DNA from: Octopus sinensis
Lineage: Eukaryota
DNA length: 64,000 nt
Assembly: GCF_006345805.1 (NCBI RefSeq)
Contig: NC_042998.1
Location: 143,964,001 to 144,028,000 of the forward strand
Direction of reading: 5' to 3'
Below the pieces are notes generated by a model. That model worked only from the letters and a program-made list of their open reading frames with translations. It searched no databases and had not been told where the DNA came from. Position numbers and translations under genes: made by a program. Shown here in pieces: positions 41,501 through 44,500 of the stretch; position 1 is the stretch's first letter, and every line of letters starts with the position of its first letter.

Positions 41501-44500
41501 AAAAAATGTTTCCGAAAGTCATGGGAGCTGTGTTGTTTTCTGACTTTGTAGGCATGTCCACGTGTGTTAGACACATGGAGATCAAAAAGGTGTTCAGTGT
41601 TGTTGTTGGTGAGGTGGTTGATAACTTTGTGGGTGTTTACCAAGTCCGTCGCCAGACGCCGGAGCTTCAGTGAATCCATGCCCAGGGAAACAAGGCGCTC
41701 AGAATATGGTAGGTGTCTGATGGAGGGTATGCGTTTGGTTGCACGTCTCTGGACAGATTCCAGGAAGTCAATGTTCTGAGCAAGATAGGGGTTCCAAACT
41801 GATGATGCGAATTCCAAGTGTGGTCGTACCATAGCTGTATACAGTTTTAAATAGATGGCTGGAGAGCGGCTAACAAAAGTCTTGCTGAGTGATGCCAAGA
41901 CACCCTCGGCCTTCTTGACAATTTTAGAGATATGCTTTGTCCAATGCAAATCACTGCTGACAGTGATGCCTAGGTCACGCTTGCAAGAGGATTTCTTGAT
42001 ATCAGTGTTGTGGTGGGAGTATGTGGACGCAGGGTTTTTTCTCCCAAAATGCATGGTGGTACACTTGTCCACAACCAGTTTCAGTTGCCAGTCTGTGATC
42101 CATTGCTGCATTGTGTCTAGGTCTGATTGCAGGAAAGAGTTGTAGACATCAGGATCTGTCCTCTTGATTTCAAGGTACAGCTTGATGTCGTCTGCATATT
42201 TCAATACTGTGGCATTCTTTAAATTGGCATCTATGTCATTAATGTATGCCACAAACAAGAGGGGACCAAGGACAGATCCCTGTGGTACACCTGATGACAT
42301 CTCATATGGTGTAGAATGCTGTCCTAGAACTGTGACTACCTCCTTTCGGCTGAGAATGAAGGATTTCAACCAGTTAAAAAGGTCATCCCTCACACCCATT
42401 GCAGAGAGTTTCACCATAAGCCTTTTGTGTGGCACAGAGTTGAAAGCCTTAGCAAAGTCAAGGTAGACAACATCCACCCATGAGCCACTGTCAGTGATCT
42501 GAGTAATGTCCTCAAGGAACTCGACAAGCTGATCACTGCAGCTGGAGTTAGGGACAAATCCATATTATGAGGGTTGGATAAGACTGTGAAAGCTCCAGAA
42601 GTCCCAGAGTGTTTCTCTGACACACGATTCCATCAGTTTTGAAATACAGCTAGTGAGACTGACTGGGCGATAGTTGACAGGTAATGTGCGGTCGCCCTTT
42701 TTGAACAGAGAAATGACACTGGCAGTTTTCCACTGCTACGGAGTAGCACCATTGTTGAGACAGTACTGGAAGAAAATAGAAAGCTGGTGTAAAAGGAAGT
42801 ACCTGCCACGTTTGAGAAGCAAGTATGTAACTCCATCGAGACTAGGGGAGGCATAGTTGCGCTTATTTTGAAAGTGACGTTGCAGCATTGCAGGTGTAAA
42901 TTCCATAGTTGTTATGGAATTTGCTGTTAGTGATGGTGAAGATGGTACATTTTGACTTTCAACAGTGAATATGTTTGCATAGCACTCGGCAATGAGTTCT
43001 GCGCATTCCTTGGGGTCGTCAGTGATCTGGTTTGTGTGAGGGTTGCGAAGAGGGCCCACTGGAGAGTGAGGTCTCTGCTTCGAATGCATATATTTCCAGA
43101 AAACCTTGCTGTCAGGATTGGCTGCTATGCACTGTTCAAATTCAAGCACTGCTTTTTTTGTCACTTGCTTGAGATGGTTGGAAGATTTATTCCGCTTCTT
43201 CCTGTTGGTGTCTGATTTATGCAACTTGTATTCCCGTTCAGCAGTCCGACGTTCCCTCCTGGCAAGTCGGACCACTGAAGTTTCCCAAATTGCCCTTTTG
43301 GGGCGGTTCTTTTTCTGTTTACGTGGCACTGATGCTGCACATGCTGCCCATATTGAGTCCAGGATACTCTGGAGTATAGTATTCACATCTCCAGAGTTGT
43401 AGAATTCACGCCAGTTTGGGTGCTGTAGTTCAGTGTGGTACAGGTTCCAATCTGCTCTCTTCCAATCGAAGGAAGCAGATTGGAGATGGTTCAGGTTTTT
43501 GTTGTTGCCCGCAAGAGCCAGATTGGCGATGATCATAGCATGATCAGAGTCACCTAGAGGTTCCTCCGTAGTGCAATTGATAACCACTTCAGGAGCTGTG
43601 GTGAAGAGCAGGTCCAAGGTGTTGTCGCCTCTTGTTGGAGAGGTGACTACTTGTGACCAGTTTGAGTCCAGTACAAGCTCAACAAAATCGTTTGCACTCT
43701 GTGGCCAATGGAAGGTTTCCCAATTGATCTCAGGATGATTGAAATCGCCTGCAATAAAAACATAAGTGGCTGTTTTCCTGACAGCAGCTTGGAGGATATC
43801 GCAAAGCTGTGTGTCTTGATGGTAATTTGGGGGACGATAAACAACACCAAGCAGGAGTGTTGACATGGTCATACGTACGTCACAGAAAAAAACTTCTTGT
43901 GATTCGTTCAAATCGGCACAAGGAATTACCGAAAAATTTGAACGAACGTAGACCATCACACCACCACCACGGCGGTTAATGCGGTCCTTGTGGAAGAGGT
44001 TGTACCCCGTAATGTTGAAAACCCCATTACAGAGTAAGGAATGTGCCCATGTTTCCGTGACAGTGATGAAGTCAGGGTCAATACTTCTGACGTAGGCGTT
44101 GAACAAATGTATTTTGTTGCATAAACTGCGAGCATTTAAGGACAACAATTTGTACCCTGCTTGCAGTTTATGATGGTGTGTAGAGGATGGCAGGTTGTTC
44201 TGGTTTAGTTTCCCTGAGTTGCTGTAGTTTTTTTAGATTTTTTTTCAGTGTTAGTTATTGTGGGTAGAGAGCATTCAGACCAGCTGGTATCTCTCTTCCA
44301 CGTTTCACCACTCTTAACAAATCTCCAGATTTGTCCATCTTCACGAAGACTGAAACTTTCTTGTAGAGCTGAGTTCCGGTTCAGGGAAGCCGCTACACGT
44401 AGCTTCGGATGTACATCGGATGGTAAGCCTGGGCGTGTTCAGAAGGTAATCTGATTTTCACACCCAGCTTTAACTGAGGCCAGATGGTATGAGGTTGCCT

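Follow-up and report, generated by a model that had tools for sequence, protein, structure and literature searches.

A conserved slippery heptamer at the junction between ORF1 and ORF2 in a CR1-like LINE family of Octopus sinensis suggests programmed -1 ribosomal frameshifting

The analysed window, a stretch of 64,000 nucleotides of Octopus sinensis (contig NC_042998.1, positions 143,964,001 to 144,028,000), contains a copy of a CR1-like LINE within an intron of a gene resembling NEDD4 (Table 1). The copy is in sense orientation, the host gene being likewise on the minus strand. The element displays the hallmarks of APE-type non-LTR retrotransposons, that is, an APE endonuclease followed by a reverse transcriptase (RT) in ORF2, 5' truncation and a simple-repeat 3' tail. 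A tree built without named members of the CR1, L2 and Crack clades separates the family from the L1/Tx1-like families and goes no further; CR1 is a likely, provisional clade name. Two ORF1 homologs (P0060 and P0070) gave a sub-cut-off match to a PHD finger (E about 1e-3). PHD-type ORF1s occur in CR1/L2 lineages of the Jockey superfamily, L2 included, and these lineages likewise have two ORFs and APE and RT domains (PMC4120745). Pfam gave no match for the closest ORF1 homolog (P0001), and a PDB search turned up no relative for either ORF1 or the endonuclease, while the RT weakly matched R2 and retron-type RTs. Atlas matches were all below 0.9 and are leads only.

The copy in the window is truncated and has stops in both ORFs, and it is therefore a witness to its family and not an active element. 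It is cut off at its 5' end at 45205, ORF1 carries a premature TGA (44441-44439), and ORF2 is interrupted by two stops (42738-42736 and 42567-42565) and by a frameshift near its end. The poly-glutamine tract of ORF1 (45060-44840) consists of repeated QQNQPQ(L/P)E units and differs in length among copies. Elsewhere in the window (4161-4475, plus strand) lies an old RT fragment of another retroelement, with 27% identity to the LINE RT.

Table 1. Features of the LINE copy and its surroundings. Positions are those of the window, except in the last row, where they belong to the loci named.
Feature	Position	Strand	Evidence
CR1-like LINE copy, 5'-truncated and inactivated	41315..45205	-	blastn against full-length copies, 94-96% identity
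NEDD4-like HECT ubiquitin ligase exons on either side of the LINE	46390-46280, 41199-41074	-	NEDD4 HECT match for flanking exon, E 9e-23
What is left of ORF1: partial Cys/His finger, poly-Q, conserved C-terminal domain and a variable tail with TQGN at its end	44205..45205	-	
Last -1-frame stop (TAA), limiting the ORF1/ORF2 overlap to 6 codons 5' of the heptamer	44233..44235	-	
Slippery heptamer G_GGA_AAC, in the phase needed to pass from ORF1 to ORF2 by a -1 shift	44208..44214	-	GGGAAAC in 58/62 family junctions
ORF1 stop TAA, abutting the heptamer, ORF1 frame	44205..44207	-	61/62 family junctions
AUG-less -1-frame linker from shift site to endonuclease; in-frame CTG at 44193 and 44166	44143..44207	-	
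Strong predicted hairpin, starting 35 nt past the heptamer, subfamily A only	44120..44172	-	-23.3 kcal/mol, z -4.0
ORF2: APE endonuclease and reverse transcriptase, broken in the window copy	41385..44214	-	Pfam PF03372, PF14529, PF00078
3' (ATT)n tail, (ATT)7 in the window copy	41315..41335	-	
ORF1 stops of same-frame TGA-C loci	L129 1230, L130 353, L131 1701, L132 338, L133 1355, L134 1228, L137 1475		

On the minus strand, ORF1 ends in ACT CAG GGA AAC TAA. Our reading agrees with the original prediction that a heptamer of the form X_XXY_YYZ, G_GGA_AAC, stands in phase with ORF1 directly before its stop. The codons of ORF2 begin at 44214, one base 5' of those of ORF1 and hence in the -1 frame, which is open from 44232; the proposed opening 18 nt upstream of the heptamer and the stop that bounds it were both confirmed. 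The Exo_endo_phos match (PF03372) begins at residue 31 of this open frame, corresponding to profile position 2. The earliest in-frame ATG of ORF2 (43956) lies 86 codons past the heptamer, inside the endonuclease and, as had been claimed, beyond the LNARS and TETW motifs, which carry catalytic residues of APE endonucleases. A functional -1 ORF thus runs open through the site and has no start of its own. In four ORF1s of 380-416 codons, phased GGGAAAC occurs a single time each, on the last codons. The bare decamer GGGAAACTAR was not enriched genome-wide (7038 matches versus 15263 for the reversed control) and is uninformative. What carries the case is therefore where the site stands and how well it is conserved.

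In order to follow the junction through the family, the same genome was searched three times, which yielded 80 loci with 62 distinct junctions; these are best matches and not a census. GGGAAAC directly followed by TAA was found in 57 of the 62 junctions, with the other five each off by one base, and the -1 phase to the endonuclease was kept in 60. No in-frame ORF2 ATG precedes the endonuclease motif in 61/62. The junctions fall into subfamilies A (n=48) and B (n=14), whose endonucleases are about 76-80% identical, and the heptamer with its stop and the -1 phase are conserved across both. Bases identical between A and B number 10/10 at the site, 8/30 and 21/30 in the stretches adjoining it upstream and downstream, respectively, and 110/150 across the body of the ORF1 domain. 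Other identical runs of 8-17 bases exist between A and B in the coding regions, and what sets the site apart is not its length but that it borders a divergent tail. The ORF1 tail differs in length by 3, 9, 12 or 18 nt, and still the ORF1 phase at the heptamer is kept in 59/62 copies, the three exceptions being one-base losses. Three findings that would have spoken against the original prediction, namely a frame shared by ORF1 and ORF2, an ATG before the endonuclease and an unconserved heptamer, did not occur.

The junction pattern was recognised in 18 of 20 longer copies that were retrieved. Four combine a whole ORF1 (380-407 aa) with 942-943 open codons past the site and a first ATG at codon 86, and a fifth has 952 open codons past the site. 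The arrangement therefore belongs to intact elements. Assembly error or decay of one copy was considered and rejected, as the junction is common to intact copies and to four DNA-type runs; in these runs, no change of the heptamer was among the changes listed. At one place in the genome (G000:C7:38089574-38133418), at least 6 copies of the junction region recur at a spacing of ~7 kb, which suggests a tandem array with a LINE fragment.

Conservation was found to reach beyond the family, in far relatives, by a protein signature and by one DNA locus. A phmmer search with the C-terminal region of ORF1 gave 60 proteins, of which 7 were dropped, as the domain-end pattern was missing, and 53 were kept. 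The latter have a median pairwise identity of 40% and are protein sequences only, with codons and ORF2 frame unseen; searches of viral contigs and of contigs from prokaryote genomes turned up no DNA of GN-tailed homologs. Gly-Asn (GN) is present in the variable tail of 40/53 homologs, compared with a mean of 6.5 and a maximum of 15 in 10,000 within-tail shuffles, and GN, KN or EN is present in 51/53 (shuffles: mean 16.5, maximum 29). The position of GN floats between 0 and 19 residues before the stop, mostly with one GN per tail. All 41 GN are preceded by a residue with a codon able to end in G, as G_GGA_AAC requires; residues whose codons cannot do so (N, D, H, Y, F, C, I) precede GN in 0/41 cases and in 8/33 of the control (P 7e-5). 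Although the query tail itself has GN, selection bias is small, since most matched stretches end before it.

Searches with the endonuclease gave 44 distant loci with about 26-37% identity over the full domain, located on metagenome contigs and on apparent eukaryotic contaminants in prokaryote assemblies. Endonuclease and ORF2 queries of viral contigs gave no match. We examined 29 of the 44 loci, the other 15 being short or partial, and in 8 of the 29 an intact ORF1 overlaps ORF2 in the -1 frame. In locus L144, ORF1 ends in CAG GGA AAC TGA, ORF2 is in the -1 frame, and no ATG follows for 67 codons. Its endonuclease is 30% identical to that of the window family, it forms a separate and long branch in the tree, and its ORF1 is of a different type, for which a homolog search returned L144 itself as the sole match. 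A_AAA_AAC occupies the same homologous position in four loci of one clade (L062, L063, L065 and L070), and L064 has G_GAA_AAC instead; no canonical heptamer was found in the -1 overlap of L067 and L068 (2/8). Phased GGGAAAC, AAAAAAC or GGAAAAC therefore lies inside the overlap in 6/8 of these loci, which represent three lineages by the tree; across 346 overlap codons we counted 6 of these heptamers, versus 0 across 1869 codons of the ORF1 body. An in-frame ATG is found within the overlap in 4/8 loci (L065, L067, L068 and L070). Taken with the 10/10 versus 8/30 identity between subfamilies, the homolog tails and L144 indicate that site and phase are conserved beyond the neighbouring sequence.

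Known shift sites have spacers of 5-9 nt to a downstream structure, lengthening to about 15 nt at most where protein cofactors take part (PMC5009743). At 5-9 nt past the heptamer we found no 3' stem-loop, in a prediction limited to stem-loops. There was no stable fold within 60 nt of the site (60-nt windows, z +0.2 to -2.0), and Rfam gave no match with E up to 1. The weak downstream CCTGC/GCAGG stem of the original prediction was rejected: its 60-nt window gave a non-significant z of -0.4, and subfamily B does not have it. The strong hairpin further downstream reaches -29.6 kcal/mol in young A copies (z -5 to -7), where it is the strongest window in 1.3 kb. Its outer stem is a near-perfect 14-15 bp in these copies and has one mismatch, at 44162, in the window copy; subfamily B has weak hairpins only at this place. 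Past the stop, A and B have in common AGAACAA and CCATCC(T/C)CT. Candidates for a stimulator would be the adjacent stop, a short conserved C-rich linear stretch or the distant hairpin, and one may speculate about a ribosome queuing behind another that is paused at the hairpin.

Judged by its sequence, the junction is a real, conserved recoding signature, and programmed -1 frameshifting at G_GGA_AAC, yielding an ORF1-ORF2 fusion, is with good probability its best explanation. The gag-pol-like fusion envisaged by the original prediction is supported by the conservation of the heptamer, the -1 phase and the missing ATG. G_GGA_AAC and A_AAA_AAC are among the most shift-prone heptamers (PMC5009743). 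A minority of ribosomes would slip back by one base on the last ORF1 codons and continue through ORF2, with tRNA-Gly and tRNA-Asn presumably slipping in tandem from GGA AAC to GGG AAA. The predicted product is a fusion of ORF1, endonuclease and RT with a transframe stretch of 13 residues, and ORF1p would be in excess over the fusion, as Gag is over Gag-Pol.

The main rival to frameshifting is non-AUG reinitiation, in which, much like L1 or SART1 coupling, ribosomes terminate at the TAA and start anew at an in-frame CUG that lies 14 nt or some 40 nt further on, aided by the hairpin, to make a separate ORF2p. The missing ATG alone proves nothing in this respect, because the same genome has an AUG-less L1/Tx1-like family without ORF overlap. 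Thirty L1/Tx1-like loci of this genome comprise two families with a spacer and an ATG and one with a spacer and no ATG. The latter (L097-L125, e.g., L121, G000:C14:64826953-64830576) is young, has a short spacer past the ORF1 stop and no ATG before the endonuclease, and its ORF2 frame opens with TAA-ATT/TTT; AUG-free initiation thus probably occurs in this genome. Reinitiation also gains from in-frame CTG codons upstream of endonuclease motif I, at +45/+48 in A and B and at +21 in 45/48 A copies, the hairpin following 21 nt past the +21 codon, which is missing in B (0/14). SART1 requires a downstream structure (PMC3708506) and ORF2 of L1 is thought to be AUG-independent (PMC5009743). Coupling of the SART1 type (UAAUG), with an AUG overlapping or adjoining the ORF1 stop, was not found, the stretch up to the endonuclease motif being free of in-frame ATG in 61/62 junctions. 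What reinitiation leaves unexplained is the recurrence of a phased heptamer, a preceding G and the -1 frame in distant lineages, and also why many homologs have their GN well before the stop; we consider it unlikely.

GN, KN or EN might alternatively be a protein motif of the ORF1p tail, with the heptamer as a by-product. The homolog evidence is indeed at the protein level, and S or Q dominates before GN (32/41). The motif, however, floats in a low-complexity tail, its three variants correspond to three known shift sites, the codons GGA AAC are fixed where DNA was seen, including the different ORF1 type of L144, and same-frame UGA-C elements (see below) do not have it; we regard this explanation as very improbable. 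Slightly less probable still is a pre-translational correction of the frame, through splicing or else through slippage of the polymerase or editing where the sequence reads GGGAAA. Rare transcripts of this kind could escape notice, but the runs are just three bases long and lend little support. Contigs of 4/4 probable-RNA runs span the junction, show no sign of splicing there and have no indel at the site, a weak argument given that contigs drop rare variants. No run with the junction was on record as RNA and the four labels are guesses, so that no expression is claimed.

The frameshifting favoured here has well-known relatives. PEG10 uses the same heptamer, G_GGA_AAC. In retroviral and LTR gag-pol, PEG10 and coronavirus ORF1a/1b, an X_XXY_YYZ heptamer lies at the end of the upstream structural ORF and the polymerase is in the -1 frame with no start of its own (PMC5009743). 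The window family differs from the gag-pol cases in being a non-LTR LINE without protease and without a stem-loop found at the usual spacing, and we see even chances that it is a LINE counterpart of Gag-Pol that works without canonical nearby RNA structure. According to reviews, ORF2 of L1 and SART1 is translated by reinitiation and that of some CR1/L2 elements by 2A StopGo (PMC2881922, PMC5972666, PMC3708506); these elements face the same bicistronic problem but make a separate ORF2p, where the octopus signal would give a fusion. A contrast with non-LTR elements as a whole has to be softened, since TRE5-A and TRE3-A of Dictyostelium, according to a review, both need a -1 frameshift for ORF2 (PMC5911963). 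The latter belong to an amoeba and another lineage, and the passage of PMC5911963 on them gives no shift site or assay, whereas the octopus family has a canonical heptamer conserved across lineages. In Paramecium, a +1 frameshift or reinitiation and stop readthrough were suggested from consensus sequences for non-LTR groups 1-3 (PMC5405496), and the gag of Drosophila HeT-A needs a frameshift (PMC5009743); both differ from the octopus family in direction or place of the shift and have no -1 heptamer between ORF1 and ORF2. The word 'frameshift' is absent from the accessible parts of PMC4120745 and two other CR1 surveys. Within such accessible texts, Repbase reports and subscription papers being outside this scope, no description of a conserved -1 heptamer for CR1-like LINEs of animals came to light. 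For protist non-LTR elements, frameshifting had been put forward earlier.

How LINEs translate ORF2 has been explained only in part, in L1 and SART1, with reinitiation as the preferred view. Given a conserved canonical slippery site, another answer can be put directly to the test. If true, the RT would be covalently tied to the RNA-packaging protein ORF1 at a set ratio, which would change the view of LINE particle assembly, and many annotated CR1-like ORF2 proteins would be without their true N-terminus. Such a fusion would also bring with it a sizeable new collection of frameshift and readthrough signals from cells.

With regard to readthrough, ORF1 and ORF2 share a frame in seven of the distant loci and are parted by a single TGA, followed by C in 7/7. 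The bases after the TGA are CTA in two, CTC in two and CAA in three loci, at a local C content of 0.11-0.31, and the loci represent four lineages. An ATG before the endonuclease is absent in 4/7 and stands at the first endonuclease motif in 3/7. UGA CUA is known from viruses as a context for readthrough (PMC13517186), and we posit these CR1-like loci as candidates for stop-codon readthrough. The remaining 14 examined loci are broken, have an ATG or a spacer, carry a 2A-like NPGP or are unreadable. Two loci (L145 and L147) have one long ORF2 with LNPGP before the endonuclease and resemble known 2A-like elements. Loci L126-L154 are LINE-bearing, apparently eukaryotic contigs inside prokaryote genome assemblies, and one ORF1 fragment (P0112) is annotated as a bacterial hypothetical protein.
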